A stretch of 64,000 nt of DNA from a virus (taxonomy: Duplodnaviria; Heunggongvirae; Uroviricota; Caudoviricetes). Position 1 is the stretch's first letter. Each line of letters opens with the position of its first letter. Position numbers and translations under genes: made by a program. Of this stretch, positions 8,801-64,000 are shown one piece after another. The notes beneath the pieces were generated by a model. It was given only the letters and a program-made list of their open reading frames with translations, did no database searches and was not told the origin of the DNA. The stretch spans positions 35,694 to 99,693 of IMG/VR virus record IMGVR_UViG_3300015610_000614, one strand, 5' to 3'.

Positions 8801-9237
8801 GTAAACGTCAAAGTATTCTAAAAGCTTTAACTGATAAGCTTAAAACAATAGATGGAACTGGTTCTTTTAAAACTAATTTAAACGGGAATGCCTTCCCATT
8901 TATTAATTACTGGGATCAGGTTTCGGATTTCCCTTGTATTTATAGTACTTGTGGTCAAGAAACTAGAGAATACCACCCATCTAACTTTGCTTGGGGCTAC
9001 ATAAATGTAGTCTTAAAGCTGTATACGCATGGTGAAGATTGTACAGATCAACTGGAAAATCTTCTAACAGACGTAGAACAAGTAGTGAATGCTAATAGGA
9101 CATTAGTGTTCGATTCTGAAACAAATTCAACAATTACTGAAATGTTAGTAACGTCTATAATTACTGATGAAGGTGTAATGAACCCTTATGGTATAGGCGA
9201 GATAATGCTTCAGGTACGCTATCCACTTATAATGTGA
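8797..9237 (+). CDS. Hypothetical tail completion/terminator-like protein
   Basis: 146 aa, coupled ORF just upstream of the tail tube gene. Confidence 0.35.
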   Translation: MSKRQSILKALTDKLKTIDGTGSFKTNLNGNAFPFINYWDQVSDFPCIYSTCGQETREYHPSNFAWGYINVVLKLYTHGEDCTDQLENLLTDVEQVVNANRTLVFDSETNSTITEMLVTSIITDEGVMNPYGIGEIMLQVRYPLIM

Positions 9238-9310
9238 TTTAAGTCCTATAGGTACAGAAAGATAAATGTCAATCTAAGCCTAGACAGACTTTGCCAACCA
9301 GGAGAAATCT

Positions 9311-11700: not shown

Positions 11701-11729
11701 TTGACTTTTAATTCCTACAGTGCTATAAT
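11701..11729 (+). promoter_or_regulatory. Consensus sigma70 promoter upstream of the tape measure gene
   Basis: ttgact at 11701-11706, 17-nt spacer, tataat at 11724-11729. Confidence 0.7.
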
Positions 11730-11799
11730 CTGTAGGACGATGCGAACTGCATCCAAATATTTCAATACCTTTCAGGTATTGGTTTAAAAAGAGGTAAGC

Positions 11800-17700: not shown

Positions 17701-19719
17701 CAAATGGAAGCTGAGATTGATACTGTTAAACAGTATAACGATTTAACTTCTCAATTAAATCAATATACTAAAACATCCGTTGAACTACGTACTGAAGAAC
17801 GAAACAAGCTAAGCGATATTAATAAAGCACTGTATGATGTAGTTAATGCGTATAAGGATCTTAAGGATGCTAACGCAGCCATAGCGACAGCTATGTCTAC
17901 TTTAGAAAGTGTTACTAATAGTTTCGCTTCCGGGCTAGCATCAGCCGCTGCCGCTGTAGAAGCAGCAGACCAGGCAATAGCTAGAAATAATGCGTCAATT
18001 GTCGGAGCTGTTACTACTGCTCAAAAGGGTATAGTTGACAAATATCGTTCGGCCTCTACTACTCTACAGAATGCTAAGAAGGCTACCACTGCTGCCTTAG
18101 CCGGTATAACCACTGGTTATTTAAATGCGCAAAAAGCAGTAGCAAGTGCTAGCAGTGCTGTAGCAAGTGCGAATAAGAAGGCTAAGGACGAGCTTCGCTC
18201 GCTAGCAGATAATATCATGACATTCCTAGACGATCTTCGTACTGGGGCTCTTGGTATCCTGTCTGGCGGTGATAAGTTTGATGTACTTAAGAATAAGTTT
18301 GCTGCAACCGCGGCAGCAGCGCAAGCAGGCGACAAAACAGCCGCAGCAGCACTGCCTGACTTAGCTCAGAAAGTACTAGAACTTGCACAAAGCAACTCTT
18401 CTACTAGCTTGGAGTACGCTAAAGTATACGGCGAAGTAACGAGTACTTTAAACGACGTATCTAATAAAATCTACGACGCGGTAGGGCCATCTACTCCTGA
18501 CGTGGATCTAGAACAGTCACAGGCTCTAGCTGATTTAGCAGCAGCGCAAGCTGAACTAGCTAAGTGGCAGGATGCTGTCAATGTTTCAGGGGCTTCTAGT
18601 ACTGAAGCTACAATAGATCTATTAAAAGAGTGGAAGGATGCCAAAGCTTCTGAAGTAGAAGCTTCCGAGATGTTTGATAAGTGGACTAAGCTTGCTGAAC
18701 AGGCAGGTTTAACCATGAAGGATCTAATTGAAGATCCTATGCAAGACTATATCGATGCACGTAAAGCTTACTTAGACTCTATTGATGCACTAAATAAATG
18801 GAACGACGCTCTAGCTAAGTCAGGTATTTCAGTTAAGCCTGAAGATACCGCTATTGATACATATCTAAAAGCAATTGAAGATAGAAATCAAAAAGTTAAA
18901 GACCTAGAAGCATGGCAAAAAGCAATTAAAGATAACGGAATAGATGTTAGCAAAGCTACTACTGGTGTACAAAGCACCATAGATAAGTATGTTGCGGATT
19001 GGAAGAAGGCCAACGCAGATCTAGCTGAAGCGCAAGCCAAAGCTGCTGCTGCTCAGGCAATTATTTCTGATATGACTGCATCAAAACTAGATGCTATTAA
19101 ATCAGCTGTAGAAGCTTCTGCAAATGCCATTGCTAAATCAATTCTAGATAGCTTAAATAAACCTAAGGAAGTAATACCTCCTCCAAATCCTGCTGCTAAT
19201 CCTACTAGCCCAAGTACTGGCGGACCTACTACGAAAATACCCGAAACTCCTAGTATACCTAAATCTGCTGCTTATGTAATGAGCTCAGATGATATGATGA
19301 GTCTAAACTCAGCAATATTAATGGATCAATACAAGGGTGACGGTGGTTATAGTAGTCGTCTGTTACTAAGTCGTTGGGGAGTTGATAGTCTAACTAAGTT
19401 GGAAGACTTTAAGAAGACTAATGCAACCCTATTAGGTAGTTTGTTGAATCCTATACCTGATATGGCATTGCCTTCGTTCGACGTAGGTACTAATTATGTT
19501 CCGCAAGATATGATTGCTCAAATCCATAAGGGTGAGGCAATTATACCTGCTAGATATAATAATCAAGGTAATGAAGATTTGGTTAATGAGGTAAGAGCAC
19601 TAAGGGCTACAGTAGTACAACTACTACAAACAACCAATAGTGTAGAAACTAATACTAGAAAGTCGAAAGATGTTCTAGTTCGTGTAACTCAAGATGGTGA
19701 AGGAATGGTTACTGCATAA
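11800..19719 (+). CDS. Tape measure protein (2639 aa)
   Basis: Very long Ala/Lys/Glu-rich coiled-coil protein with a hydrophobic segment (AVGIATAAVSAFAGAIGTAFMVVGAFVAV), after the chaperones. RBS agagg. Confidence 0.8.
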   Translation: MAGNTIETNLRLNATGIKEATEDAKRLNSELSQAIKNAGKARTAGQTSAVLNANNKDSRANEGMAYSIAQAGGGSGAAARDFGKQARGLGGLVHLYATFAANLFAVSTAFTALQRAMDTSNMIKGLDQLGAASGRNLGTLARQVQAASDGAISLRDSMEAVAKASAAGMSTTQITRMTEAAKKASQALGVNMADAISRITRGITKLEPELLDELGILVRVDKATQDYAKTVGKSVGSLTQFEKQQAFANAVLTEAEQKFGSIQIDSNPYSKLLASFQDLSFQGLELVNKVLGPMVNYLAQSPVALTAAVTAVGAALLKQAIPAIGAFRENANAAAEEARKLAVYRNKAAEAAHQAELKAVAQRAEELADRELMAKEAAIAKLEKQKGARKVGKTYAPILEKSADEVTDAELAKLRKEAAIQQKRGNVEAAKGYNDLAAAIETSRTAELNYIQAVDKNKKALADRNSYFSISGQLARQAEAANQSAIQKTIKTLASETVYTEGVRAAWKKLNTEIAAARSGPRMVDFGDGPEQVKKMTAMQAGWTRISGAVGIATAAVSAFAGAIGTAFMVVGAFVAVFEILDSVFGKNSKELEIFTRNTDALNESAANLDRTLDAIYKKKPGEGFSVDSINAMATAMQDLYENADKLADSFAKVNSKASGWDKFVDTMWDLVGRGSVDKLRDSISKTITSAIKSAPVGEARDEFKRTIAAIYNVDPEDTKAIQKVFDNIGSSEDASKLANSTSAALKQLALELNNTASVAKTADEGFKKINESYRNLANSLRDQSPLTLLGQNLVTESINIAKALNDPKLAITELVNLVKDESKLRLLPVDTVKQLKSAQFQIEQLAVSTEEFQKQLKDAEEARAKIASINPLKQSGRGLQRNPEYDALKEIIAKGDKAKIQLDINTSKLTELRQTLSGAMDESFKQGVRIITDKFVEASTKAQLAVLSSITARFSGPGKSDLETSIKNKELAIQERNIDTMFSLATSLDNLAILMEKEQLTKELASTTSESRISAISSRLGELVEMSGFTAKRFKATAADFDQLSANAKKGLSNYITTLFGAKAQLAGIAGERTKNTLAGQAGTRAENFGEDQKRKQLEIDINALTVERLRNLNSISGNQSLYLLSLKQSAEIEAESLANSKARAEAEFKINQLVIEKDNLAKQGADAQQLANAQKSVDAAQRELDTITKTQAIRADNSAVVRRQETIAAIAALEEKELAFAREQFSLDSERAQISLDIEQQRLGMSSQYGLMLGSQQIAEQAKLDILNAELQANQQITAALNEQASVKLKNATDRDKEMAGATTLDQIIEIAQRYDALDSKIEQSTTKRIDNTKLMLEGRKDYIKSMSEEQKLMAGISEATENLVTVFGDLGDAIGGSLKSLLTFQAGSKKLADAQADKLKKFAKGSDEYNEQEKENIQERTDYELKSAQGIAGATKKMFNEKTVAYKAFAAVEKAIAITRLVMGAKQMAQDAAETASAIAKSVARASTDGVAAVVKTLASLPFPANVAAGAAVAAIVAGLLSSIGGSGPNMSSVGMTAEDRQSTQGTGTSWQNGQKVENGGGVFGDSSAKSESIAHSLDIISSTSVEGLQNDNRMIDALLGIRDAVSGTAKVLYSVAGLRTKSIFNTEEGTKTSGISGLFGKTTTKEIIDAGIRLKGSFNDLAKGVSGAIQQYETVKQTKTNSGFLGIGKSTSTSISETYTAADKAISDSITKIFTNATNTFVQVGSKLGMSMEDVLSKLGNVNIDQLASLRGLSGEALQKEFESVISNILDTASSTLFESLSKYQQFGEGMLETVIRVTDANDKIKLSLTSIGKKYTELSFDVTEALSKASGGLDKFMEQVASFKDNFLTDAEKLKPIAEDVSNTLAKLGLSNIQTREQFKNLVNSIDLTTDAGQKMFIALMNIQDAFAQVTARHQELLDEYVSLEEKLADTLGGNNALKEALNKKELASMNDIERAQYLKNRQMEAEIDTVKQYNDLTSQLNQYTKTSVELRTEERNKLSDINKALYDVVNAYKDLKDANAAIATAMSTLESVTNSFASGLASAAAAVEAADQAIARNNASIVGAVTTAQKGIVDKYRSASTTLQNAKKATTAALAGITTGYLNAQKAVASASSAVASANKKAKDELRSLADNIMTFLDDLRTGALGILSGGDKFDVLKNKFAATAAAAQAGDKTAAAALPDLAQKVLELAQSNSSTSLEYAKVYGEVTSTLNDVSNKIYDAVGPSTPDVDLEQSQALADLAAAQAELAKWQDAVNVSGASSTEATIDLLKEWKDAKASEVEASEMFDKWTKLAEQAGLTMKDLIEDPMQDYIDARKAYLDSIDALNKWNDALAKSGISVKPEDTAIDTYLKAIEDRNQKVKDLEAWQKAIKDNGIDVSKATTGVQSTIDKYVADWKKANADLAEAQAKAAAAQAIISDMTASKLDAIKSAVEASANAIAKSILDSLNKPKEVIPPPNPAANPTSPSTGGPTTKIPETPSIPKSAAYVMSSDDMMSLNSAILMDQYKGDGGYSSRLLLSRWGVDSLTKLEDFKKTNATLLGSLLNPIPDMALPSFDVGTNYVPQDMIAQIHKGEAIIPARYNNQGNEDLVNEVRALRATVVQLLQTTNSVETNTRKSKDVLVRVTQDGEGMVTA

Positions 19720-42896: not shown

Positions 42897-42959
42897 CTAT
42901 TACCCAAATTTAGAACATCTATTATAACAGCTTGCGGCCGTAGCCGCAAGCTCAGTTTT

Positions 42960-44354
42960 TTACAGCTTTGCACGATCTCGAATCTCGTCGAAGCTGTTCG
43001 TGACTAGTAGCTTACCGTCACGGAATACCTCAACAAGAATAGAGCGATCAGTTTCAGGAGTAGAGAAGTAACCGTAGCTATCTTTAGATAGCACTACACG
43101 ACCCTTCTTGCTAGACTTATTACTAGCAGTAACTGGATCCTTATATACATCATGCCACTCACCGTCAATGCAGATAGCAGAACATTTCATAGCGAATCCT
43201 AAGGTGTCGCGGTTAACATGATCTAGTAGGGCTCCGCCCATACCAAAAGCAATGTTATCAGCGCTCCATTGCAGCGTGTATAGCACATGCAGAATGTTCC
43301 AGATAGACTTAAAGTTAATGCCGTCTCCCCAGATTAGACGTACATGGTTAAGAACCTTGAACCCCTTGTCATTGACAGTGTATCCAAAGTCACTTTCCAG
43401 AATCTCTAGCATCTTAGGTAGCACCTTTTCAGGATCTCCACTATCAGGACGAATTACTAGAGTACCGCCACTAGAGATAACCTGGTCTTTTAGTTCACCA
43501 CCCCAAATACGGCAAGCATGATATATATCATAACTATCGCTGACAACAGCGTAGATCCCACCAGGCTTACTAAAATTAGAAACCATGTTGGCATAAGCGG
43601 ACGATTCCGACTCACGACCCCAGCTAGTAATAGTAGAGTGCTCAGCAGCAGGAATACTAAAACCGACTTCGCTAATAGAAGCGCCATAACTTTCGATAGC
43701 CTTTACAACAGCAACAAAGGTATCCGTACCCTTAAAATTAATAAGGTGTGCCATACCACCAAGAGCAGCAGTTTCATTACTCTTAGCACCACGTGCACCA
43801 AAATCGTGCAACTTAAAATCTAGTAGATTAACGTCACCCGTTACCTCTAGATAATGCTTAATTAGCTTCTTGATCTGACGGCTAAGGGTAGCTACACTGG
43901 AGGGGTACCAAATTGCACGTAGAAGTGCAGTTTCTACCCAAGTCGTAAGCCAAGGCACCTTAGGGTCGGTGTTCTCTACAGTACACAGTACATTACGCAG
44001 AGAAATTACACTACCTTCTGGAGCTGCCTTAATGCTGATTGGGAGAAAACCCCCGTGCTGCTTAACAATATAGTCCCATCCTTCCCGATTGAAAGGCTCA
44101 CCGTGCGCTGTCCAATAGGCATCCGCCAAGGCCACGTCATTTTCAGTGACGGGAGTAAGCAGATAATCTTGAATAAAAGCCTGTAGTCCAAAGAATACTG
44201 CGCCGTCGTCTTCATATCCATACCAGTTATCTGGTGTATTATTACTACGTGCTTCGATATAGCTGTATACGTATTCGGAACCTTCCGGATACTGCTTCCA
44301 CATCGAAACCTTATAGCTATCAGTGTTAAATAGAATGTTATTGATCTTAGACAT
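42960..44354 (-). CDS. nadV: Nicotinamide phosphoribosyltransferase (NadV/Nampt)
   Basis: N-terminus ILFNTDSYKVSMW is characteristic of Nampt; 464 aa. Confidence 0.85.
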   Translation of the reverse strand: MSKINNILFNTDSYKVSMWKQYPEGSEYVYSYIEARSNNTPDNWYGYEDDGAVFFGLQAFIQDYLLTPVTENDVALADAYWTAHGEPFNREGWDYIVKQHGGFLPISIKAAPEGSVISLRNVLCTVENTDPKVPWLTTWVETALLRAIWYPSSVATLSRQIKKLIKHYLEVTGDVNLLDFKLHDFGARGAKSNETAALGGMAHLINFKGTDTFVAVVKAIESYGASISEVGFSIPAAEHSTITSWGRESESSAYANMVSNFSKPGGIYAVVSDSYDIYHACRIWGGELKDQVISSGGTLVIRPDSGDPEKVLPKMLEILESDFGYTVNDKGFKVLNHVRLIWGDGINFKSIWNILHVLYTLQWSADNIAFGMGGALLDHVNRDTLGFAMKCSAICIDGEWHDVYKDPVTASNKSSKKGRVVLSKDSYGYFSTPETDRSILVEVFRDGKLLVTNSFDEIRDRAKL

Positions 44355-44385
44355 ATGAAACTCCTTCTTTATGTCGTTTATTAAA

Positions 44386-44616
44386 TTAACGATCTCGCCA
44401 GAAATCGCCGGTTATGTAACTACTAGTCTCTGGTTGTACTGGACGTAAACCACTTGGATAGTTTACACATACTGTCTGTAAACATACAGGACAAGTGCAT
44501 GACCAGTCTTCGCCATCTCGTAAATTAGACCTAGTCCTGCCGTCGGATTTACTAACTTCTAGTTCTGACTTACAGTGCCTACAAGTTACGCGATAGCGCT
44601 TCTCGGCCTCAGGCAC
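44386..44616 (-). CDS. Zn-ribbon small protein
   Basis: CRHC ... CTCPVC. Confidence 0.35.
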   Translation of the reverse strand: MPEAEKRYRVTCRHCKSELEVSKSDGRTRSNLRDGEDWSCTCPVCLQTVCVNYPSGLRPVQPETSSYITGDFWRDR

Positions 44617-44632
44617 TCCACGAGAAATAACC

Positions 44633-45616
44633 TTAATACCTATACATGCTCCAGTTATTAACTGCTAGGACTGGCTTCACTCCAGTCATTTCTGAAATGA
44701 TTTCTCCGTGGTCATCGTGAAGTCGCATATAATTGATAGCTTCCTCAATAGGCACAAACTTAGCATTAACTGCATCATCCATGCCCTTAACACGTGGGAA
44801 AGTACCGTCCGGATTGGGGTCAATATGAACCAATACTGCTAGAGTGACTTTAGGTACAAAACCACTACTACGGCTAGGATGGTCAAATAGACGCGTAGAC
44901 TTAATAGACCCACGAACTACTTTTTCAGGTACACGAAGATTTGTTTCTTCGTACATTTCACGAATTGCACAATCAATAAAAGTTTCGTACTTTTGTTTAT
45001 GCCCACCAGGTAGTGCCCAGGTACCGTTCTTACGTTCAATCAGCAGAACATGTCCTAGGCAAATAACTACTGCGTCTCCGCAGTTTGCTTGCAAGCAGTC
45101 AGGAAATGGGTAAGATTCAAACTTCTTACGATCGCTGTCGTAATCGAGGTATTCGAGCTGTACAACGGCCGGTAGTAGATGACGATGCGCGTTACGTAGT
45201 TCAGTACCGGATGTTTCGATTGTAGAATCGATATTCTGGTATTTAAACTGCGGGAACCAACGCAGATAGTCGTTGCCTTCCTTAAAATGACCGTATAGCG
45301 TAACATCCGCTTCTACAGTGATTACTTGCTTAATGGTTGCCGCAACGTCGGCCATCCATTGATCGTCACTGTAAAGGTAGTCATTAAGGGGCACTACATT
45401 TACACGGTCTGTGTACTCGGGTCCTAGTGCTTTATAGATAGCGCCTCGGCGTTCATCAAAGGTAAACGGATTCTTAATAGAACGAGCCTTATTTGCACTG
45501 CCTACCAGAATAATAAGTTCGTCAGATACCTCTAGAATTCGCTTCATCAGGAACATATGACCTTCATGAGGTTCAGGAACCTGAAAGCGACCAATCAAAA
45601 TACCAATCTTCTTCAT
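44633..45616 (-). CDS. nadM: Bifunctional NMN adenylyltransferase (NadM) plus Nudix hydrolase
   Basis: GRFQVPEPHEGH (HxGH nucleotidyltransferase). Nudix box GGHKQKYETFIDCAIREMYEETNL. ATG at 45616 with RBS gcaggag; the listed M1 is a TTG. Confidence 0.8.
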   Translation of the reverse strand: MKKIGILIGRFQVPEPHEGHMFLMKRILEVSDELIILVGSANKARSIKNPFTFDERRGAIYKALGPEYTDRVNVVPLNDYLYSDDQWMADVAATIKQVITVEADVTLYGHFKEGNDYLRWFPQFKYQNIDSTIETSGTELRNAHRHLLPAVVQLEYLDYDSDRKKFESYPFPDCLQANCGDAVVICLGHVLLIERKNGTWALPGGHKQKYETFIDCAIREMYEETNLRVPEKVVRGSIKSTRLFDHPSRSSGFVPKVTLAVLVHIDPNPDGTFPRVKGMDDAVNAKFVPIEEAINYMRLHDDHGEIISEMTGVKPVLAVNNWSMYRY

Positions 45617-45642
45617 TTGCAACTCCTGCAAAGTTAATATTT

Positions 45643-45687
45643 CCCACTCAATACATATATTATATGCTAATTGAGTGGGTTATTCAA
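45643..45687 (-). promoter_or_regulatory. Promoter of nadM (TTGAAT, 17-bp spacer, TATAAT) overlapped by an 11-bp inverted repeat
   Basis: -35 at 45682-45687 and -10 at 45659-45664 (minus strand). Inverted repeat cccactcaat(t) at 45643-45652 / 45670-45679 brackets the -10. Confidence 0.55.
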
Positions 45688-45697
45688 GTCAAGAATT

Positions 45698-47813: not shown

Positions 47814-48584
47814 TTACTTTTCCTTAGGTTTCTTTACCAGGATACCGTCTACTTCTTCGTAAGTCTTTTCAAACTTGCCGAACGAGTAGTCCTTACCAAT
47901 TTCCTGATCTACACCAATAGGTGTACTGGGGATAGAACAACCACGATCCTTCTTAGTATTTCTACGTAGAATTTCGCAGTATTCTTCAACCTGATCATCA
48001 CGTACTAGCGCTACAATAGAGTCATGTACTAACATGAAGATTTGTGCGTCTAACTTCTTTTCTGCAATTTCAGCTGCGGTATCCATAGCAGCAAACAGAT
48101 TTACATCTGAAGCTAGCGACTGGATCTCAGAGTTAATGCCACTACGAACCTCATGTGAAGCAATGCCCTTATCTGCACTAAATACATTAGTTAGGCGACG
48201 CTTGCGCCCGAAGAACGAATAAGTGAAACCATTGGCTTCAATAAAGTCCTTACGAGACTCTAGCCACTTCTTAAGTTTGCTGAACTTAGTGAAGTAGTCC
48301 TTAATGTTGTCCTTCGCAGTATCTAGGCTGTAGTACTCACCAGTTGCTTTAGTTACGGATTCCGCAACTTTAGCCGGCCCTGAACCGTACAAGATTCCGA
48401 ATGTAATTGCCTTTGCAGCCTGCCGAAGGGCAGGGTATAGGGTTTTAACCTCATCTACCGAACAAGGCAGATTGAAAACCATCTTCGCAATAGTAGAGTG
48501 AAGGTCACCGCCACTAGAGAAAACAGCCTGAAGGTTTTTATCCCCACTCAACACCGCAGCGTAGTACACTTCGGCGGTGGTCAA
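47814..48584 (-). CDS. polA: DNA polymerase I family (PolA), exon 2 (motifs B and C)
   Basis: EVYYAAVLSGDKNLQAVF aligns with ELRIMAHLSRDKGLLTAF. RQAAKAITFGILYG is motif B. LVHDSIV is motif C. There is no ATG at the 5' end (TTG preceded by TAA). Confidence 0.8.
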   Translation of the reverse strand: MTTAEVYYAAVLSGDKNLQAVFSSGGDLHSTIAKMVFNLPCSVDEVKTLYPALRQAAKAITFGILYGSGPAKVAESVTKATGEYYSLDTAKDNIKDYFTKFSKLKKWLESRKDFIEANGFTYSFFGRKRRLTNVFSADKGIASHEVRSGINSEIQSLASDVNLFAAMDTAAEIAEKKLDAQIFMLVHDSIVALVRDDQVEEYCEILRRNTKKDRGCSIPSTPIGVDQEIGKDYSFGKFEKTYEEVDGILVKKPKEK

Positions 48585-48918
48585 CGGTTAACTCCCTAGT
48601 TTTCACTAGAGACCGGACTATATCTTCAACCTCTTGTAATGAATAAGCAAATAATACGTTTTTAGTGCGTATTTTTGCAATTCAGTAAGGCTGCCCCCCG
48701 TTTCGAGCTCATTACTCATGGCCCTACTCCTTTCGGATAGTCTCTGAACGTTCCACCTAAGGTATTAGGTGGCTTCGCTGCTGATTGCCCAATTTCTACA
48801 GTTTTCAAACCATCGCATTCACTATTACTAGTCGTGCTGTGGTCTGTAGAACTTAAGGGGTTTCCAGCAATTAGAGGGGTGTTTATCTCAGTATTACTAC
48901 TAAGAGGGACTTGAAATC
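48585..48918 (-). ncRNA. Group I self-splicing intron in polA
   Basis: Minus-strand P AAUUGCUGGAAACCC (48858-48872), Q AAUCAGCAGCGAAGCC (48771-48790), R GUUCAGAGACUAUC (48736-48749), S AAGAUAUAGUCCGGUC (48608-48624). It inserts right after the motif A Asp (..SIVSQD|) and contains no ORF. Confidence 0.75.
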
Positions 48919-50443
48919 AATCCTGGCTTACAATGCTATATCCAGCTGGAGCGACCAAACATCCTTTAATGATTGGGTCATCTCGCGGAATCTGTTGAGC
49001 ATTAAACTTTCCGCTACTAGATAAGCGCCCAGATGTGGTGAAAATAAGATTGAAATTTGTACGAATTCTTCCATCGTTGTCGATCTCCGGTAAAATCTTA
49101 CTAACATACGAGCTGCTAATTTTGGTAAGAGCACGTAGTTCTAGAATAGCCTTAGGTAGCGGATGCTGATCTGCTAGCTCTTTTAGAACTTCTGCGTCAG
49201 TAGATACCGCACCTGCCTTAGTAAGCTTACCAGTAGGAGTAAGTCCTACGTAGTCAAATAGTACTTTTCGTAGTTGAACTACTGAGCCAGGATTGAAGAT
49301 TTTACCCTCGTCCTTCTCATATTGCTTAACTTCGGGGAAGCTAAATACCTTTTCCTTGGCTGCTGAAATCTGTGTAAACAGATAAGTACCGGCAGCTTTC
49401 ATACGGTCTACACCGATAGGAATACCTACTTCTTCCATATCCATTAGGAACAGAGTACCGCGAATCAGAATATTTCGGTACACCCACTCCAGCTTAGGAT
49501 TATTGAGCACTAGCGGACGGAACTTACGATATAGCTCTAGAGTTACTGCCGTGTCGATAGCAGCATATCGACCAATAACATCCAATGGGATTAGATCGTA
49601 AGTGAAATCTTCCTGAAGAATACCGTGTTTAGCACAATATTCTTTCTTAAAGTCATCTAGTTCTGAATCGTAGTCACCAAAATCGGTGTACTTCAGTGCT
49701 AGCTGCTTTAGACCGTGCGAATCTGTCTCATCTAGAACGTAGTGCATAACCATAGTGTCATGCACGTTATCACGATTGAACCTAAAGCCGAAGTGATATG
49801 CAAGCATCTTATAATCGAACTTCATATTATGAAATACGACTGTATACTTATCAAAAATCTTCTGCATTAGTTCAATATGCTCAGAATCAAGGATATCTGA
49901 TACTAGGTATCTGCCTTGACGTAGCATATGCGACATAGAAATACCTAGTACGTACCCGTCGCGCGGATAAAGTGCAGTAGTTTCAGTATCCACTGCAACT
50001 TCGGTAACGTCACTATTATATACTTCTAATAGATATGCGTATGCTTCTTCCGCATTTGCAATCCACTTATAGTCACCGTTTACTGCTGCATTAGTAATCT
50101 TGCCAGCTAGAACGCCATGAATTTTATTCAGAGCTCGTTCAAAATCAGGCCTCATTTCAGGCTTAAATACTAGCATTGCAGGATTAGAAATACACATATA
50201 CTTGTTGTCAACAAGTAAGCCAGCATGACTAGTTACAGACGTAATTTTTGCGTAATGTTTTGCAGCTTCGGATCCTACTAGAATTACGTAATCATAAAGA
50301 TCCGGGTCAAAATCTAGAGTTACATCTTTCTTTAGTAGCTTTGGAATAGGTACTTCACTCATGTGAAGTAGATCAAACTCAAAATTGAAATGATCTGAAT
50401 AGTTGTTTCGGCTAGGTGCCTTGTCAATTACCGCAATTCTCAT
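48917..50443 (-). CDS. polA: DNA polymerase I family (PolA), exon 1 (3'-5' exonuclease and N-terminal polymerase domain up to motif A)
   Basis: VAVDTETTALYP (Exo I), HNMKFDYKML (Exo II), and ends ...GYSIVSQD (E. coli VIVSAD of motif A). Confidence 0.8.
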   Translation of the reverse strand: MRIAVIDKAPSRNNYSDHFNFEFDLLHMSEVPIPKLLKKDVTLDFDPDLYDYVILVGSEAAKHYAKITSVTSHAGLLVDNKYMCISNPAMLVFKPEMRPDFERALNKIHGVLAGKITNAAVNGDYKWIANAEEAYAYLLEVYNSDVTEVAVDTETTALYPRDGYVLGISMSHMLRQGRYLVSDILDSEHIELMQKIFDKYTVVFHNMKFDYKMLAYHFGFRFNRDNVHDTMVMHYVLDETDSHGLKQLALKYTDFGDYDSELDDFKKEYCAKHGILQEDFTYDLIPLDVIGRYAAIDTAVTLELYRKFRPLVLNNPKLEWVYRNILIRGTLFLMDMEEVGIPIGVDRMKAAGTYLFTQISAAKEKVFSFPEVKQYEKDEGKIFNPGSVVQLRKVLFDYVGLTPTGKLTKAGAVSTDAEVLKELADQHPLPKAILELRALTKISSSYVSKILPEIDNDGRIRTNFNLIFTTSGRLSSSGKFNAQQIPRDDPIIKGCLVAPAGYSIVSQD

Positions 50444-54216: not shown

Positions 54217-54984
54217 TTATTCTTTCTTGAGAAATTCAATTAAATTAGTGATAATAGTAATGCCATATTGTTCAGCTTTATCGCGCTTACTACTTCCCTT
54301 ACCTTCCTCATCTACTAGGTAATCTAGAGTCTTTGTTACGGATTCTACTACTTTGTAGCCAGCGGCCTGTAATTTTTGTGTTGCTTCGGCCTTATTTTTG
54401 AAAGATAAAGGTTTTCCTGTGATGCAAACAGTTTTACCGTTTGCGTTTTCTTGTTTAATACTAGCTTGCTTGACGCTCTTAAATAGCTCAGACGGGACAA
54501 AATCCTCAATCTGAGTAAATTCAAACTCAAGCCATTCTAGTAAATTATTTGTTGCTTTGTCGCCTAAACCCGCTGCTTTACAGGTTTCTTCGTTGATCTG
54601 TTTAATATCGTCAACCACGGAGGCGATCTTGTTAGAAGCCGTATTCCCGATAAGAGGAATCGACATAGCAGCTAAAAATGTTGCAAGGCCTGCTAGCTTA
54701 GACTTTTCAATTTCTTGAACAAGTTTTTCAGCAATTTTAACGCTTCCCAGCGCTTCGGCAGCAGTCTCTACATCGAGATAAAAAATCTCTGCCAAACTAG
54801 TTAAATTCAATTTTTCAATTGACTTAGGCCCCATCCCTTTAATACCCATAACAGAGCAGAAATGCTCCATCTTCTTTGCCAACTGAGCATCGCACGCTAC
54901 GTTTTTACAAAAAAGCTGATCGTTGATCAGAGTCAAAGGATACTCGCAGCAGGGGCATGTCGTTGGTATAAGAATTTGTTGCAT
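54217..54984 (-). CDS. ligA: NAD-dependent DNA ligase, C-terminal subunit (Zn finger, HhH, BRCT)
   Basis: CPCCEYPL...C..C, HhH GIKGMGPKS, BRCT KTVCITGKPL. Confidence 0.75.
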   Translation of the reverse strand: MQQILIPTTCPCCEYPLTLINDQLFCKNVACDAQLAKKMEHFCSVMGIKGMGPKSIEKLNLTSLAEIFYLDVETAAEALGSVKIAEKLVQEIEKSKLAGLATFLAAMSIPLIGNTASNKIASVVDDIKQINEETCKAAGLGDKATNNLLEWLEFEFTQIEDFVPSELFKSVKQASIKQENANGKTVCITGKPLSFKNKAEATQKLQAAGYKVVESVTKTLDYLVDEEGKGSSKRDKAEQYGITIITNLIEFLKKE

Positions 54985-55009
54985 AGCTTCTCTATCAATT
55001 TAAGTATCT

Positions 55010-55038
55010 ATTATAGATTAATTTTAACCTATAGGCAA
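55010..55038 (-). promoter_or_regulatory. Promoter between the two ligA halves (TTGCCT, 17-bp spacer, TATAAT)
   Basis: Minus-strand -10 at 55010-55015 and -35 at 55033-55038. Lies in the conserved block AAGTATCTATTATAGAT that is shared with 59241-59260. Confidence 0.55.
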
Positions 55039-55059
55039 GCTCAAATTTTTGTATCTCCC

Positions 55060-56013
55060 TCAACCTACTTTATACACGATTTCGGGAATTACAGCACCCG
55101 CACGTCGTACACCTACAGTACATCCAATATACAAATCAAGCGCTCGAATGAATTCAGGATTATTAAGAGTTGCGCGAGATACCTTAGCATCTTCGATTAT
55201 TACTGGTTCTAGAATTGCTACAGGCGTAATTTTACCTGATCGACCTGTTTGCCAAACTACGTCCAATAGTTTGGTTTCTACAGCTTCGGTTCGTTCTTTC
55301 AGAGCATATGCACCTTTTGGATGTTTAGCAGTATAACCTGCGGCATTGAAGTCATCATTATTATTAATGCGATGTACAATGCCGTCAGAAGGATAAATTT
55401 TGTCAATATTTTTATCAAATACTGTATTGAAACCAGCTTTTGACAGATAAGTCATATCTACATCATACCATGGTCCAATGTTAGGTTGAATACCATAAGC
55501 AAAGAATTCTACTGCACGCGTTTTGAATTCTTCTACTGAACCAAGATTAAGTGCACCTGCTGCATAGTTACGAGCATTTTCGATATGCTTAGGAGCAACC
55601 AACTCTCCAGTAATCTGACGCATACCAAGGAACGGGATCTCCTTAGGAATCAAATTAGTGTTTGCAAACTTGTCTGTTACATCCTTACCCTCAATACCGT
55701 CACCACGAGTTGTGGACCGAAGGTATTTGCCGTCAATATAAAGATGCTCAACAGAAGCTCCGTCTAGTTTTATAGACGCGCACTTATCTTTAGTATACCA
55801 AGCTAGCGGACTTTTCTTACCTTCGTCTTCGTAATGCTTCTCTAGTGAGTACATTTGGAAGACATGCTTGTTTACATTATCGTGCTGTTTAGCACCTACC
55901 TTGTTATATCCAATACTATCTGCTAGAGCATCAAACTGTGCATCGGAGATAATAGGATTGCCTGCGTAGTAGGCAGAAGATGCTTTGTCAAGAAATTCTG
56001 TAATTTTTGTCAT
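55060..56013 (-). CDS. ligA: NAD-dependent DNA ligase, N-terminal adenylation subunit
   Basis: KxDG motif SIKLDGASVEHLY, 317 aa. Confidence 0.75.
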   Translation of the reverse strand: MTKITEFLDKASSAYYAGNPIISDAQFDALADSIGYNKVGAKQHDNVNKHVFQMYSLEKHYEDEGKKSPLAWYTKDKCASIKLDGASVEHLYIDGKYLRSTTRGDGIEGKDVTDKFANTNLIPKEIPFLGMRQITGELVAPKHIENARNYAAGALNLGSVEEFKTRAVEFFAYGIQPNIGPWYDVDMTYLSKAGFNTVFDKNIDKIYPSDGIVHRINNNDDFNAAGYTAKHPKGAYALKERTEAVETKLLDVVWQTGRSGKITPVAILEPVIIEDAKVSRATLNNPEFIRALDLYIGCTVGVRRAGAVIPEIVYKVG

Positions 56014-56631: not shown

Positions 56632-57606
56632 TTACTTCTTAGTATCTACGCTTAGGTAAGGTACCGGAGCGCTGCCATAAATATGGGTAGGTAGTGCACC
56701 ATTCCATTTCTGAGCTTTTGCTAGGTCAACTTCAATGCGCTTAAGTTCCAGAACATCGCGGTTCTGCGCTAGAGCATCGTTTTGAATCTTCAGAGCCTTA
56801 GCATTAGCCTCGGCGGCCTTTAGCGTTGCGTATGCTTCACCATCTGCCTTTGCCTTAAGAGCCGTAGCTTCTGCTTCAGCAGTAACAACCTTAATACGTT
56901 GTTCAGATTCTACAGTCTTAGCACGATTATCAGCAGCTAGCTTCTTCTGTTCTTCAGTAACCTTGGCATTAATAGCAGCCATGTAGCTATCACTGAAGCT
57001 AAAGCTAGTTACATCAACTGACACAATATTAGCGTAGTAAGTAGCCATCTTAGCTTGAATAGCAGCCCTAAACGCTAGAGATACGTCAGCTCGCTTGGCG
57101 ATTAGATCGGTAGCGGTATAACGTGAAGTAACAGCCTTAAAGGCTTCACGAGTAGCAGTATCTACATAGCTGTACAGATTGCCGTCATGTGAATAAGACT
57201 CGAAAACTTCCGCAACCTTATCCGGCATAATGTTATAACGTACAGTCAGCGAAACCTTAACAGGTTGCGTATCTGACGTAGCACCTTCAGCATTCTCAAC
57301 TACCGCAGCTTCGGGTCGGATACTGAATACGTGCAGCTTCTGGAGAGGATAAACAAACTTGTAACCTTCGCCAGTAATACCCTGGATAGAGCCACCGAGT
57401 GTAAATACGCCACGGTGGCCAGTAGGCACCTGATGGATAGGCCATAGAGATACTAGCAGGATGAAAATAACTAGAGCTGATACTGCCTGCTTAATTACTT
57501 TAGGCCAATTGGTTCGAGATACATTTACCTTACCATACCTAGAAGTCTCTACTTCTTCAGTGATAGTATAATTGAAAAAGTTCTTTAGTGCTTCGTTATT
57601 AAACAT
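56632..57606 (-). CDS. SPFH/band 7 (prohibitin/HflC-like) membrane protein
   Basis: N-terminal TM segment, SPFH core (GHRGVFTLGGSIQGITGEGYKFVYPL), C-terminal coiled coil. Confidence 0.7.
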   Translation of the reverse strand: MFNNEALKNFFNYTITEEVETSRYGKVNVSRTNWPKVIKQAVSALVIFILLVSLWPIHQVPTGHRGVFTLGGSIQGITGEGYKFVYPLQKLHVFSIRPEAAVVENAEGATSDTQPVKVSLTVRYNIMPDKVAEVFESYSHDGNLYSYVDTATREAFKAVTSRYTATDLIAKRADVSLAFRAAIQAKMATYYANIVSVDVTSFSFSDSYMAAINAKVTEEQKKLAADNRAKTVESEQRIKVVTAEAEATALKAKADGEAYATLKAAEANAKALKIQNDALAQNRDVLELKRIEVDLAKAQKWNGALPTHIYGSAPVPYLSVDTKK

Positions 57607-61705: not shown

Positions 61706-62176
61706 TTAAGCCTCGATAGTTGGAAATCCGTTAGCCTGTTTTTGCGAATCACCTGGCATTACTCGATAGTTGTCTTCGACGCTATCAGGGGTAGATACCT
61801 CGATAATAGTACCTGCTTCTAGACATACTAGCTGATGTGGTAGCAGTGGCGGATTATGCCAAACCATACCTGGAGTTAGTTCAGTAGTACGTACAAACGC
61901 ATCGTCAGTATTAATATGTAGAACACGGAATCGCCCGTTCAATACGTACCAAGTCTCATCTTTTACTGCGTGAAAGTGCATAGAAAACTTTGCACCCTCA
62001 TTAAAGTGCATTAGTTTACCGCAGTATTTATCGTTACTAGCCCAGATTTCTTCAGAGCCCCAGCCTTTATTAATTTTTCCGTGTAAACGTGTCATGTCGT
62101 TGTAGTAATGAATTAATTTCGTTAGTATGCGGAGCGTAACATCCATAATGTTGAACACTAACCGCGGCTGTAGCAT
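61706..62176 (-). CDS. Cupin-fold sugar-phosphate isomerase-like protein (type II PMI C-terminal domain-like)
   Basis: MHFHAVKDETWYVLNGRF...PGMVWHNPPLLPHQL...GTIIEVSTPD fits the cupin PMI pattern. The listed M1 is TTG; ATG candidates are at 62176, 62146 and 62095. Confidence 0.45.
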   Translation of the reverse strand: MLQPRLVFNIMDVTLRILTKLIHYYNDMTRLHGKINKGWGSEEIWASNDKYCGKLMHFNEGAKFSMHFHAVKDETWYVLNGRFRVLHINTDDAFVRTTELTPGMVWHNPPLLPHQLVCLEAGTIIEVSTPDSVEDNYRVMPGDSQKQANGFPTIEA

Positions 62177-62957
62177 TAGCAAAAGCTAACGCCTTATTAA
62201 TATCTTTTGTTTCCAGATAGTTGATTACTAAACCACTCAGGAAGGCATCGCCAGCACCACAAGTATCTAATACTGGTACATCATAGCCAGCATGTAAATC
62301 CCCTGCATAAAATGCACCCATGGAACCCATAGTAACAATCAAACTGGTTCTAGGTAGGTTTACCAAACTATCTGCTTCTGATTTATTTATCTTCACAAAA
62401 CCGTAGGTAATCATACTTAGGTCCCTACGCTTAGTATCAATAAATAGAGGAATACTATGTTGTTTAGCTAAACTACAAATAGCTTTTATATCTTCGTCAG
62501 TAAGAAAGCCCTTGCAATAATCACTAATAACAATAGCACTTATACTACTTATAGCAGGCATGCTAGCAAGACTGAACTTGGTTTTAGCCTCCTTATCATA
62601 ATCGATTCTAAATGCGTATTCGGAAATCATAGTAGTAATCTCACCTAACATGAAGCGTACTTTTAAGCACATTTCATCCGGGTTAGTAGTAAGATCTAGT
62701 ACTTTATATGTAGAAGGTACCGGCCCCTGCAACATCTTACGCATAGTTGCCACAACGTTGGCTGCCATGCCTGGTTTATCATCTACTTTCGCATTGTTAT
62801 TTACAACAAAAGCCGGTACATCTTTTTCTAGATTCTTTTTTGAAAATACTTGTATGTATTTATCAATGCAGGCATCCCCTATAACTAGGATGGTTGATTG
62901 TTGCCGTTGTGGATAGCGAATCTTTTTCCACAAATTTGATATCAGAGCAGTATTCAC
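62070..62957 (-). CDS. D-glycero-beta-D-manno-heptose-7-phosphate kinase (HldE domain I homolog, pfkB family)
   Basis: ILVIGDACIDKY, KPGMAANVV, VISDYCKGFL, PLFIDTKRRD, VLDTCGAGDAFLSGLV, FANATAAVSV all align with E. coli HldE kinase motifs. GTG start at 62957 overlaps the upstream gene by 95 nt; there is no ATG before GMAAN. Confidence 0.75.
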   Translation of the reverse strand: MNTALISNLWKKIRYPQRQQSTILVIGDACIDKYIQVFSKKNLEKDVPAFVVNNNAKVDDKPGMAANVVATMRKMLQGPVPSTYKVLDLTTNPDEMCLKVRFMLGEITTMISEYAFRIDYDKEAKTKFSLASMPAISSISAIVISDYCKGFLTDEDIKAICSLAKQHSIPLFIDTKRRDLSMITYGFVKINKSEADSLVNLPRTSLIVTMGSMGAFYAGDLHAGYDVPVLDTCGAGDAFLSGLVINYLETKDINKALAFANATAAVSVQHYGCYAPHTNEINSLLQRHDTFTRKN

Positions 62958-63279
62958 TTCCTACAATCCTTTTATTCTTATATTCATCACCTTTTACCAT
63001 AATAGGATAATCTAAGTCCTTTATGATAGCGATTAACTCTTCTTCAGAATCAAATTCTACAACCATATCTACGTAGCGTATAGCCTCAAGTACTTTTCTA
63101 CGATTATACGAATTATTAATTGGTCGATTGGCGCCCTTTAAAGTTTTTACACGCGAATCAGTATCAATAGCAACAATAAGTTTATTACCCAAACTGCGAG
63201 CATATTCCAGTAGTCTCACGTGTCCGCGGTGTATCACATCGTACACCCCATTACTTATTATTATTCTACTATTGTCCAT
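62863..63279 (-). CDS. D-glycero-beta-D-manno-heptose-1-phosphate adenylyltransferase (HldE domain II homolog)
   Basis: NGVYDVIHRGHV (HxGH), LIVAIDTDSRVKTLKGANRPIN, VKGDEYK and STT align almost colinearly with HldE residues about 340-470. Confidence 0.8.
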   Translation of the reverse strand: MDNSRIIISNGVYDVIHRGHVRLLEYARSLGNKLIVAIDTDSRVKTLKGANRPINNSYNRRKVLEAIRYVDMVVEFDSEEELIAIIKDLDYPIMVKGDEYKNKRIVGSEYCSDIKFVEKDSLSTTATINHPSYRGCLH

Positions 63280-63992
63280 TTTTTATAAGAGTTGTTTTTA
63301 CCATATTTGCCTAATCGCATTTGTCCTATGCAAAATGCCGAAGAATCTATATTAGAAGCAAATTCTGGTATACTTTTGCAGAATTCTTTTATAGATGTGG
63401 ATACGTGAAACTCTGCCCCCTCTGGTGATAAGAGTTTAAATGGTTTAATTCGGCTTAACGCTTTACCTCTTTTTAGCTCACTTTGCTGTATAGCTATGCT
63501 AAACTCATCTGGGTATTCATCCTTAAGCCAGTGGTGGGCTCTACCAGAAAGTATCGTTTTTACTAGAGATTCGGGTACTTTACATCGTAGAGCTGCCTCT
63601 TTTCTGAACATATTATATTTATATAAACATACTAGTACTTTCAATATAGTAAATCTGGAATGTTTAGAATGGGAGGAAGAGGTTCCTCGGCCACATATAC
63701 CAGCATCAATAATATTATATCCGTTCTTTATGGAATCAAATTCCTTCATATAGTATTCTTCTAGTACTAGAAGTTTATCAGTACTAGTAAGTTCTAGTAT
63801 TTCTAATTTTGGTAGCTCACCAGATATATTGTACTTGTCAGTTAATTTAAAATTAGTATGTCTATTTTTAGACAGATCCCTACAGTGCGTTTTATACCTT
63901 CTATGTATATCCTGGGATTGCCCTATATAAACCCTGTCATCATCTTCCCAGTGTAACAAATAAATACCACAGTGCATAGAAAAATTCCCCAT
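63261..63992 (-). CDS. GIY-YIG homing endonuclease
   Basis: MHCGIYLLHWEDDDRVYIGQSQDIHRRYKTH. The listed M1 is TTG; ATG candidates are at 63992 and 63977. Confidence 0.65.
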   Translation of the reverse strand: MGNFSMHCGIYLLHWEDDDRVYIGQSQDIHRRYKTHCRDLSKNRHTNFKLTDKYNISGELPKLEILELTSTDKLLVLEEYYMKEFDSIKNGYNIIDAGICGRGTSSSHSKHSRFTILKVLVCLYKYNMFRKEAALRCKVPESLVKTILSGRAHHWLKDEYPDEFSIAIQQSELKRGKALSRIKPFKLLSPEGAEFHVSTSIKEFCKSIPEFASNIDSSAFCIGQMRLGKYGKNNSYKKWTIVE

Positions 63993-64000
63993 TTCCAAAT

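Follow-up and report, generated by a model that had tools for sequence, protein, structure and literature searches.

Among the phage pathways that rebuild NAD+, NARP2 starts from nicotinamide, PRPP, and ATP, and ADP-ribose is no direct building block (10.1101/2024.02.11.579819). In KVP40, a 245-kb T4-like myovirus, the pathway is encoded by two genes lying about 43 kb apart, whose products are NadV and NatV. Expression of this pair eliminates protection by Thoeris and DSR2 completely and increases NAD+ levels (Osterman et al. 2024, 10.1101/2024.02.11.579819). NARP1 also yields NAD+, and its Namat has the Nampt fold and catalytic core in common with NadV; however, it uses ADPR-PP as its substrate, carries an aromatic clamp, and is accompanied by an adjacent Prs-like enzyme, Adps. 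In the NARP1 references REP10, JackRabbit, and IME-SA1, the gene for Adps is immediately upstream of that for Namat. NARP3 rebuilds phage NAD+ as well, but with other proteins, the PnuC transporter and NadR, and from nicotinamide riboside as the precursor (PMC13464706). In bacteria, the NadM-Nudix enzymes of Synechocystis (slr0787; 2QJO) and Francisella (FTT0672; 2QJT/2R5W) provide solved examples of the bifunctional fold.

We analyzed a 64,000-nucleotide stretch (the window) of a contig of about 100 kb (99.7 kb) from a distant T5-like siphovirus. A check of the sequence found three open reading frames on the minus strand where the initial annotation had placed them. Their order is nadM-Nudix (44633-45616), a zinc-ribbon gene (44386-44643), and nadV (42960-44354), with nadM 278 nt upstream of nadV. 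This locus is very probably a two-enzyme NARP2-type NAD+ salvage module with its own promoter, located in the replication block. NARP2 is the class that had been proposed initially, and every sequence- and fold-level test that we ran supported it; the enzyme families, catalytic residues, fold, Nampt-clade membership, purifying selection, and conserved synteny described below all come directly from this analysis. As in KVP40, the locus combines the same two protein families with the same domain architectures, catalytic motifs, and a Nudix-box variant ending in N; the 73 kb read here yielded no Adps. In contrast to the widely separated KVP40 genes, those in the present phage make up a single compact unit under a putative promoter of its own, and this locus differs further in the VPEP insertion that precedes HxGH and in the intervening zinc-ribbon gene. 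Among cultured phages, the best match was Acidovorax phage ACP17 (Busanvirus), with 43% identity for NadM-Nudix and 57% for NadV. ACP17 has the same nadM-Nudix/nadV order; nonetheless, its two genes are directly adjacent with no gene between them, its NMNAT motif is the canonical PFHxGH, and it is a myovirus whose genome backbone is unrelated. Megablast of the NAD locus against 50,697 phage records returned no matches, and IMG/VR scans with NadM as the query returned no close relative. An identical NadV is present in two contigs; both represent the same phage at 100% identity and carry zero comparative signal.

Judging from the KVP40 homologues, on which both the predicted enzyme activities and the predicted anti-defence effect are modelled, NadV would convert nicotinamide and host PRPP to NMN, and the N-terminal domain of NadM would then use ATP to convert NMN to NAD+. 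The C-terminal Nudix domain would cleave ADP-ribose to AMP and ribose-5-phosphate, which host Prs would return to PRPP. A phage Prs was not found in the 73 kb read of the genome of about 100 kb, so that recycling of ADPR to PRPP would depend on the host. The initial annotation had both nicotinamide and ADP-ribose/PRPP converted back to NAD+; the nicotinamide/PRPP part holds, whereas ADP-ribose as a direct building block is at odds with the published pathway (10.1101/2024.02.11.579819). As an outcome, NAD+ would be raised or restored in the infected cell, which would blunt NAD+-cleaving abortive defences (Thoeris, DSR, SIR2-HerA, and similar systems) and would also supply the phage's own NAD+-dependent ligase. 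Thoeris, DSR, and SEFIR had been named as the defences countered. For NARP2, the tests reported were against type I Thoeris and DSR2 and bear out these two, whereas SEFIR was shown for NARP1 (10.1101/2024.02.11.579819) and is withdrawn here. The NARP3 proteins PnuC and NadR were not seen among the open reading frames scanned.

The gene order helicase, nadM, small ORF(s), nadV, and SSB is kept in relatives down to 63% identity, and nadV is flanked by the zinc-ribbon gene and a gene for a 131-aa PHROG-4258 protein. The same block of replication genes holds a split NAD+ ligase, RNR, glutaredoxin, and ThyX. An NAD-dependent ligase had been noted in the initial annotation, and we located it on the minus strand at 54217-56013 as two parts, one with the adenylation and OB domains (55060-56013) and one with the BRCT domain (54217-54984), identified by Pfam DNA_ligase_aden, DNA_ligase_OB, and BRCT and split as in T5. 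The ligase lies outside the NAD operon and serves as context only, as a phage-encoded consumer of NAD+. Such a neighbourhood, with the pair inside the replication module between the helicase and SSB, favours a purely metabolic role, in which the same enzymes furnish NAD+ for phage replication chemistry (the ligase reaction and redox reactions in nucleotide synthesis) with no meaningful protection against defence. The finding that the KVP40 pair raises NAD+ also in defence-free cells (10.1101/2024.02.11.579819) points in the same direction. However, the complete loss of Thoeris and DSR2 defence upon expression of the KVP40 pair speaks against this reading, as does the distribution of the genes: most T5-like phages among the top hits have the NAD+ ligase but not the NAD pair, and thus ligase supply alone seems not to need it. 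We regard a purely metabolic role as rather unlikely; metabolic and anti-defence roles of the pair are not mutually exclusive. A PfkB kinase gene at 62070-62957 was considered as a PRPP-feeding ribokinase and rejected, since its product resembles heptose-7-phosphate kinase more closely and a cupin gene follows it. An Rfam scan of 41.5-47.5 kb detected neither a riboswitch nor any other RNA family.

The zinc-ribbon gene between the two salvage genes (44386-44643, minus strand) is a real co-oriented small gene. It had been delimited as 44386-44616; the intervening gene itself was borne out, while its upstream boundary was not, as the conserved frame runs beyond the GTG at 44616 as far as 44643, giving 85 codons by homology. 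All homologues begin with Met at the position equivalent to 44643, where the present sequence has ATA (44643-44641) in place of the ancestral ATG; reading from the GTG, the earliest canonical start codon, would give 76 aa. The protein matched phrog_2834 (E = 1.4e-7) and carries the CxxC...CPVC motif of PHROG 2834 together with an N-terminal IKxIxRG strand, and its homologues include P0121 (92%) and P0122 (61%). In an alignment of 24 sequences, G9, C21, C24, C51, P52, and C54 were invariant, R8 and V53 were almost invariant, and dN/dS relative to L024 was 0.093. Membership in Pfam DUF7560 is not claimed (18.7 bits, under the cut-off of 27), tblastn of the protein against phage records gave no matches, and the structure model, of moderate confidence (pLDDT 71), had no significant Foldseek match in the PDB (best E = 0.3). 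T5-like relatives with as little as 63% identity keep the gene in its place between the two salvage genes, and at least one unrelated phage has it close to a nadM-nadV pair. On the other hand, the gene is disrupted in the closest relative, L010, which retains both NAD enzymes, and it occurs in four contexts without NAD genes nearby. On account of this disruption and these occurrences elsewhere, we dismissed the gene as a required part of NARP2; it is probably an unrelated passenger. It is improbable that the zinc-ribbon protein, whether as a regulator or partner of the salvage enzymes or as a co-expressed counter-defence factor, constitutes a lineage-specific third component.

nadM-Nudix (44633-45616, minus strand) encodes a predicted bifunctional NMN adenylyltransferase/ADP-ribose pyrophosphatase of 327 aa, with Pfam CTP_transf_like and NUDIX domains that both score above their cut-offs. 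The start codon was previously taken to be the TTG at 45631, which we rejected because it overlaps the ribosome-binding site; the corrected start is the ATG at 45616, with AGGAG (45627-45623) 6 nt upstream, and the resulting 327-aa product agrees with an independent gene call for the same phage. The motifs GRFQVPEPHEGH and REMYEETN, from which the initial annotation had recognized an NMNAT-Nudix protein, are both present, and motifs, Pfam domains, and modelled fold concur with that description. In the PDB, the protein matched 2qjo (E = 1e-38) and 2qjt (E = 5e-31), and comparison with KVP40 NatV gave 38% identity over 351 aligned positions (E = 6e-61). An AlphaFold2 model of the protein (pLDDT 91.9) matched 2R5W, 2QJO, and 2QJT with TM scores of 0.80 to 0.83 (E = 1e-25 to 1e-27). 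Thus, NadM-Nudix has the same bifunctional fold as the bacterial enzymes and the same conserved HxGH, SxTxxR, and Nudix-box residues, but it is only 24 to 30% identical to them, is borne by a phage, and carries an insertion. It also scored below the curated NCBIfam equivalog cut-off of the PRK05379 models, which were trained on bacterial proteins (best score, 217 bits, versus 397). Accordingly classed by architecture, motifs, and fold and not as a bacterial equivalog, NadM-Nudix is a divergent phage member of the family.

When we checked NadM-Nudix against the consensus motifs GxFxPxHxGH, ISxTxxR, and the Nudix box Gx5Ex7REUxEExGU, two deviations emerged. One is the replacement of the last Nudix-box G by N, as in KVP40 NatV, so that the box end REx2EETN is identical in the two proteins. 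The other is a 2-residue insertion (VPEP) directly before the first His of HxGH in the NMNAT domain, which KVP40 NatV, ACP17, and the two solved bacterial enzymes lack; among the top 120 homologues, about 45 share such an insertion. It is improbable that this conserved VPxx insertion in the active-site loop alters substrate range or regulation. Alternatively, the insertion might have disabled the NMNAT domain and left the Nudix domain to act alone on ADP-ribose or ADPR-derived immune signals, with no NAD+ made; its position in the active-site loop, its absence from every experimentally characterized homologue, and the modest Pfam and NCBIfam scores of the N-terminal domain would fit such a loss. 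However, H17, G19, H20, T138, and R141 do not vary among 50 homologues, the model is highly confident in the insertion loop, and the protein as a whole aligns structurally with active enzymes. Moreover, nadM is under strong purifying selection (dN/dS = 0.078), equally so in the N-terminal domain and in the rest of the protein, and the clade bearing the insertion retains nadV beside nadM, an arrangement that is sensible only if NMN is consumed. Loss of the NMNAT activity is therefore very unlikely. The Nudix residues G204, G205, E211, R219, E220, E223, and E224 are likewise invariant in the homologue alignment; mutated Nudix-box glutamates, which the initial annotation had said would contradict a NARP2 assignment, were not encountered.

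nadV (42960-44354, minus strand), preceded by AAGGAG at 44366-44361, encodes a predicted nicotinamide phosphoribosyltransferase (Nampt) of 464 aa with Pfam NAMPT_N and NAPRTase domains. The NTDSYK signature by which it had been recognized occupies residues 10 to 15, and the protein scored 594 bits against NCBIfam PRK09198 (cut-off, 405), 468 bits against the structure of Xanthomonas (Xcc) Nampt, and 409 bits against that of human Nampt. KVP40 NadV was 43% identical (E = 2e-95). D12, Y14, F185, R188, D211, H239, and R302, as well as D304, G343, D344, G373, G374, R382, and D383, align with active-site residues of human Nampt. The Nampt Asp (D211), another residue whose loss would have argued against the assignment, and the autophosphorylated His (H239) are thus both in place. 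The 20 positions checked agree with Nampt references in all but one case, His379, which is Lys or Gln in Nampt; Ala stands for human Ser275 and occurs among the Nampt references. nadV is under strong purifying selection (dN/dS = 0.056).

The clamp helix, which discriminates Nampt from Namat (PMC12774641), reads GGALLDH in NadV and is of the Nampt type, whereas three Prs-adjacent Namats have GS[YF]xxx[YF]. Ala375 and His379 of NadV sit at the equivalents of F392 and Y396 of SpbetaL1, so the aromatic selectivity clamp is absent. In a neighbour-joining tree, NadV grouped with the Nampts of ACP17, Xcc, human, and KVP40, apart from the Namats, and its score against the NARP1 Namat of SpbetaL1 (9W5X/9W5W) was about 237 bits. 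Three tblastn queries for Adps against the 64-kb window plus 9 kb of flank of the 99.7-kb contig gave a best E of 0.27, compared to 8e-11 for the positive control, and Pfam scans of these 73 kb likewise recovered no Adps. By these sequence comparisons, NadV is assigned as a true Nampt of the PRPP clade and not as a Namat of the ADPR-PP clade. That NadV is instead a NARP1-type Namat, joining nicotinamide to ADPR-pyrophosphate from an Adps encoded elsewhere, is extremely unlikely: 26.5 kb of the contig lie outside the 73 kb, the beta1-beta2 (SCL-equivalent) loop is longer and bears a W and two Y, the second clamp position is His, and KVP40 Nampt itself is weakly active on ADPR-PP (10.1101/2024.02.11.579819), but the clamp helix lacks both aromatics and has the Gly-Gly of Nampt in place of the Gly-Ser of Namat, the score to Nampt is twice that to Namat, no Adps gene is adjacent as it is in 3/3 NARP1 references, and NadV is paired with an Nmnat, a phage with both pathways not having been found (10.1101/2024.02.11.579819).

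Upstream of nadM, position and conservation mark a plausible sigma-70-like promoter (45659-45692, minus strand). The better match (10/12) consists of TTGAAT (45687-45682), a 17-nt spacer, and TATAAT (45664-45659); a weaker match, TTGACT-17-TAGCAT (9/12), overlaps it. Promoter-like sites across the region were not enriched (10 observed versus 13.8 expected). The intergenic region upstream of nadM is nearly identical in a relative at 89%, and relatives L012 and L014 have TTGCGC-17-TATAAT promoters before their nadM blocks. The same region contains a perfect 10-bp inverted repeat, CCCACTCAAT/ATTGAGTGGG (45643-45679, minus strand; arms at 45679-45670 and 45652-45643), whose arms are 17 nt apart with the −10 box inside the spacer. 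This repeat occurs only once in the window, the chance expectation being about one such repeat per 31 kb, and for the 84-nt intergenic RNA the folding energy is −25.9 kcal/mol (z = −5.05). A similar layout with other arm sequences occurs in L012 and at 11713-11737. Because this layout is missing in L014, and because inverted repeats around TATAAT boxes show no enrichment (4 versus 1.5 in shuffles, with up to 6 in a single shuffle), we do not claim a regulatory hairpin. Of the hairpin-gated promoter suggested by the initial annotation, the promoter is thus kept and the gating is rejected as unsupported. At the other end of the unit, the sequence directly after the nadV stop forms a GC-rich 10-bp stem-loop (42929-42952, minus strand), which probably defines the 3' limit of the transcript or stabilizes the RNA. 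The minus-strand sequence following it is GTTATAAT, and the U-run of a canonical terminator is found on the plus-strand side only; a terminator acting on the gene strand is therefore putative.

The pathway is already known from other phages, and its understanding is unchanged by the present locus. As a small unit that is easily cloned, nadM-nadV offers a cassette for engineering. With this finding, a distant T5-like siphovirus lineage known only from metagenome assemblies joins the phages that carry NARP2, which helps to predict the phages that can evade NAD+ depletion by host systems such as Thoeris, DSR, and SIR2-HerA.

The three genes of the locus are co-oriented on the minus strand at the coordinates given in the initial annotation: nadV, the Nampt gene (42960-44354, 464 aa), a zinc-ribbon ORF (44386-44616, 76 aa from a GTG start), and nadM-Nudix, the NMNAT plus Nudix gene (44633-45631, 332 aa from a TTG start). 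The NTDSYK, GRFQVPEPHEGH, and REMYEETN motifs quoted there were all found in the sequence. The nadM ORF itself stands, but its TTG start does not: an ATG at 45616 is preceded 6 nt upstream by AGGAG (45627-45623), which the TTG at 45631 overlaps, and the product is thus placed at 327 aa, the length that was also called independently on a metagenome contig from this phage. The nadV ATG has AAGGAG 6 nt upstream. The compact operon organization of the salvage pair is one of three minor peculiarities here, the others being a clade-shared insertion in the NadM active-site loop and the small zinc-ribbon gene between the two enzymes.

NadV matched Pfam NAMPT_N and NAPRTase and scored 594 bits against NCBIfam PRK09198 (cutoff, 405). 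Against solved structures, it scored 468 bits with Xanthomonas Nampt and 409 with human Nampt, and only about 237 with 9W5X/9W5W, the SpbetaL1 Namat (PMC12774641). We aligned NadV with human and Xanthomonas Nampt, the NadV proteins of KVP40 and Acidovorax phage ACP17, three relatives, and three Nampt-like proteins from NARP1 contexts, i.e., from phages with a Prs-like gene immediately upstream. All active-site positions were conserved in NadV (D12, Y14, F185, R188, D211, H239, R302, D304, G343, D344, G373, G374, R382, and D383). The selectivity-clamp helix of Namat has two aromatics, F392 and Y396, which the F392G and Y396K mutants revert to the Nampt state (PMC12774641). This helix reads G-S-[YF]-x-x-x-[YF] in the three NARP1-context proteins and G-G-A-L-L-D-H in NadV, which is Nampt-like (GG[AG]LLQ[KQ]). 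Furthermore, a neighbor-joining tree placed the Namats apart from NadV, its relatives, and the ACP17, Xanthomonas, human, and KVP40 Nampts. By these sequence criteria, NadV is predicted to be a genuine Nampt. Its second clamp-helix position is His in place of Lys or Gln. In addition, at residues ~36-49 (about 44208-44249), the counterpart of the Namat selectivity-clamp loop is aromatic-rich (SNNTPDNWYGYEDD) and exceeds that of the Xanthomonas, KVP40, and ACP17 enzymes by 9 to 10 residues.

NadM-Nudix contains the Pfam CTP_transf_like and NUDIX domains and matches the Synechocystis 2QJO (1e-38) and Francisella 2QJT (5e-31) enzymes in two stretches spanning both domains. It shares 38% identity with KVP40 NatV, an experimentally validated NARP2 enzyme (10.1101/2024.02.11.579819), and its Nudix box likewise ends in N. 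Across homologue alignments of 12 and of 50 sequences, H17, G19, and H20 (HxGH), R141 (SxTxxR), and the Nudix-box residues G204, G205, E211, R219, E220, E223, and E224 were invariant; T138 (SxTxxR) was invariant among the 12 and nearly so among the 50. The AlphaFold2 model (pLDDT 91.9, pTM 0.87) superimposed on 2R5W, 2QJO, and 2QJT with TM scores of 0.80 to 0.83 (E values of 1e-25 to 1e-27). The protein fell below the NCBIfam cutoffs for bacterial equivalogs (217 versus 397 bits) and is therefore filed by architecture, motifs, and fold, which point to a genuine bifunctional NMNAT/ADPR pyrophosphatase. A 2-residue insertion directly precedes HxGH (GRFQ-VPEP-HEGH versus GRFQ-PF-HxGH), with no counterpart in KVP40, ACP17, or either solved enzyme. 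The loop is confidently modeled, and 2- to 3-residue insertions of variable sequence occur there in about 45 of the best 120 homologues; we read it as a probably tolerated feature of a clade.

NARP2 is defined by a KVP40-type Nampt plus Nmnat in a phage without Adps (Osterman et al., 10.1101/2024.02.11.579819). In that survey, 94% of phages with a KVP40-type Nampt also encoded Nmnat, and no phage carried NARP1 and NARP2 together; the pairing of phage NadV and NadM had been catalogued earlier by Iyer et al. KVP40 NatV and NadV, the comparison suggested in the initial annotation, matched the window at E values of 6e-61 and 2e-95. Three Adps queries gave a best E value of 0.27 across 73 kb of the ~100-kb genome, with an Adps-versus-Adps control at 8e-11. 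The proposed NARP2-type pair is thus supported by a Nampt-clade NadV, a NatV homologue, and the failure to find Adps in those 73 kb, and the catalytic residues on which the proposal hinged, the Nampt aspartate (D211) and the Nudix-box glutamates, are present. The dN/dS values relative to an 89% relative were 0.078 for nadM and 0.056 for nadV, indicative of strong purifying selection on both genes, and relatives down to 63% NadM identity retain the arrangement helicase, nadM, small ORF(s), nadV, 131-aa protein, and SSB.

By analogy, NadV would convert nicotinamide and PRPP to NMN, NadM would convert NMN and ATP to NAD+, and the Nudix domain would cleave ADPR to AMP and ribose-5-phosphate. Of the conversion of "ADP-ribose/PRPP back to NAD+" originally proposed, the PRPP route is supported, but ADPR as a direct substrate is not; its recycling requires a Prs, and no Prs domain was detected in Pfam scans of the large ORFs. 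The NARP2 tests used type I Thoeris and DSR2, two of the defenses originally named, whereas the third, SEFIR, was shown for NARP1 (10.1101/2024.02.11.579819). By comparison with these systems, the pair possibly serves counter-defense in this phage. It is also possible that it merely tops up NAD+ for the ligase and nucleotide metabolism, in line with the NAD+ increase that the KVP40 pair brings about even in cells lacking a defense system (10.1101/2024.02.11.579819); this is compatible with counter-defense.

The zinc-ribbon ORF, correctly placed between the salvage genes, is a real gene. It matches phrog_2834 (1.4e-7), is 92% and 61% identical to two homologues, and differs from its counterpart in the 95%-identical relative L024 by 14.5 synonymous and 5.5 nonsynonymous changes (dN/dS, 0.093). 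Only 25 family members emerged from a profile search covering 5.8 billion proteins; they have in common an N-terminal IKxIxRG strand and a CxxC...CPVC motif. All homologues have a Met start 9 codons upstream of GTG 44616; by comparison with close relatives, this ancestral ATG is ATA here (44641-44643, minus strand) through a single G-to-A change that also replaces Gly with Arg near the overlapping NadM C terminus. Translation from the annotated GTG would lose G9, which is invariant, and R8, which is nearly so; the start in this phage is therefore uncertain. The gene occupies the same nadM-nadV interval in the T5-like relatives L012 and L014, and it is found about 2 kb downstream of such a pair in L020, a different phage. 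It does not behave as an obligate partner of the enzymes: in L010, the closest relative, unrelated sequence replaces it beyond the first ~22 codons with both enzymes intact; ACP17 has nothing between nadM and nadV; and four other family members occur without NAD genes nearby. A structure model of moderate confidence (pLDDT 71) gave no significant structural match. We read it as a scattered small phage gene, probably cotranscribed with the enzymes, and consider it quite unlikely that the module gains a function from either this protein or the NadM loop insertion. In L014, the 63% relative (NCBI GCA_040384165.1 contig), three small genes separate nadM from nadV (8986-9736). They code for a hydrophobic protein of 69 aa, the zinc-ribbon homologue, and a protein of 107 aa, the last called as Zn_ribbon_Top1-like in the identical region of L015. 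This interval looks like a hotspot for the insertion of small genes.

Upstream of nadM, after the stop codon of the helicase gene, lies a good sigma-70-like site, TTGAAT-17-TATAAT (10/12), overlapped by a weaker TTGACT-17-TAGCAT. Its −10 box is flanked by the two arms of a perfect 10-bp inverted repeat. The RNA of this region has a predicted folding energy of −25.9 kcal/mol (z = −5.05), and the intergenic sequence is nearly unchanged in the 89% relative. A like layout with different arms precedes the nadM block in L012 and recurs at a second promoter-like site at 11713-11737 (plus strand), where TCCTACAG-tgctataat-CTGTAGGA follows the same TCTTGACTT −35 context just upstream of the tape-measure gene. 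The initial annotation described the nadM promoter as hairpin-gated, but gating is unsupported: L014 retains the promoter alone; such layouts are not enriched in the window (4, versus 1.5 in shuffles and up to 6 in one); a perfect 10-bp repeat of this kind arises by chance about once per 31 kb; and transcription starting just after the −10 box would include only one arm. The promoter itself is plausible and conserved in position. A GC-rich stem-loop after nadV (42929-42952) has its U-run on the opposite strand and so may be a weak terminator or 3′ stabilizer. No Rfam family matched the locus.

A search of 50,697 deposited phage genomes gave no close DNA relative of the window. Part of ENA metagenome contig ERZ17987007 NODE_59 (99,711 bp) matches it at 100% identity, as do Logan contigs. 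Pfam families on NODE_59 include T5_Terminase_small, Phage_T5_dNMPase, Phage_T5_Nicking_endo, and T5_p143. The NAD+-dependent DNA ligase noted initially is indeed present, split as in T5 into adenylation plus OB (55060-56013) and BRCT (54217-54984) parts on the minus strand. The family-A DNA polymerase is also divided, between ORFs at 48917-50443 and 47814-48584 (minus strand; 332-nt gap). It is a single fused protein of 773 to 776 aa in L012 and L014, and in L010 a LAGLIDADG ORF lies directly upstream of the C-terminal fragment, which suggests interruption by a homing-endonuclease-type element. These gene-content features identify a T5-like siphovirus. The tape-measure protein is exceptionally long (2639 aa; 11800-19719, plus strand), implying a very long tail for a ~100-kb siphovirus. 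The minus-strand ORF of a PfkB-family kinase overlaps that of a cupin protein (WbuC/mannose-6-phosphate isomerase-like) lying downstream (61706-62957); the kinase is most like heptose-7-phosphate kinase (HldE domain I; 90 bits, under the cutoff), and the two look like a sugar-nucleotide module in the phage replication region. The replication module also holds an SPFH/Band-7 protein (56632-57606) and a GIY-YIG homing-endonuclease-like ORF (63261-63998), both on the minus strand. The large terminase shares only 47% identity with that of the nearest cultured Demerecviridae, and the lineage is therefore distant. Altogether, the NARP2-type NAD+ salvage pair represents a known pathway, now in a distant T5-like phage lineage.
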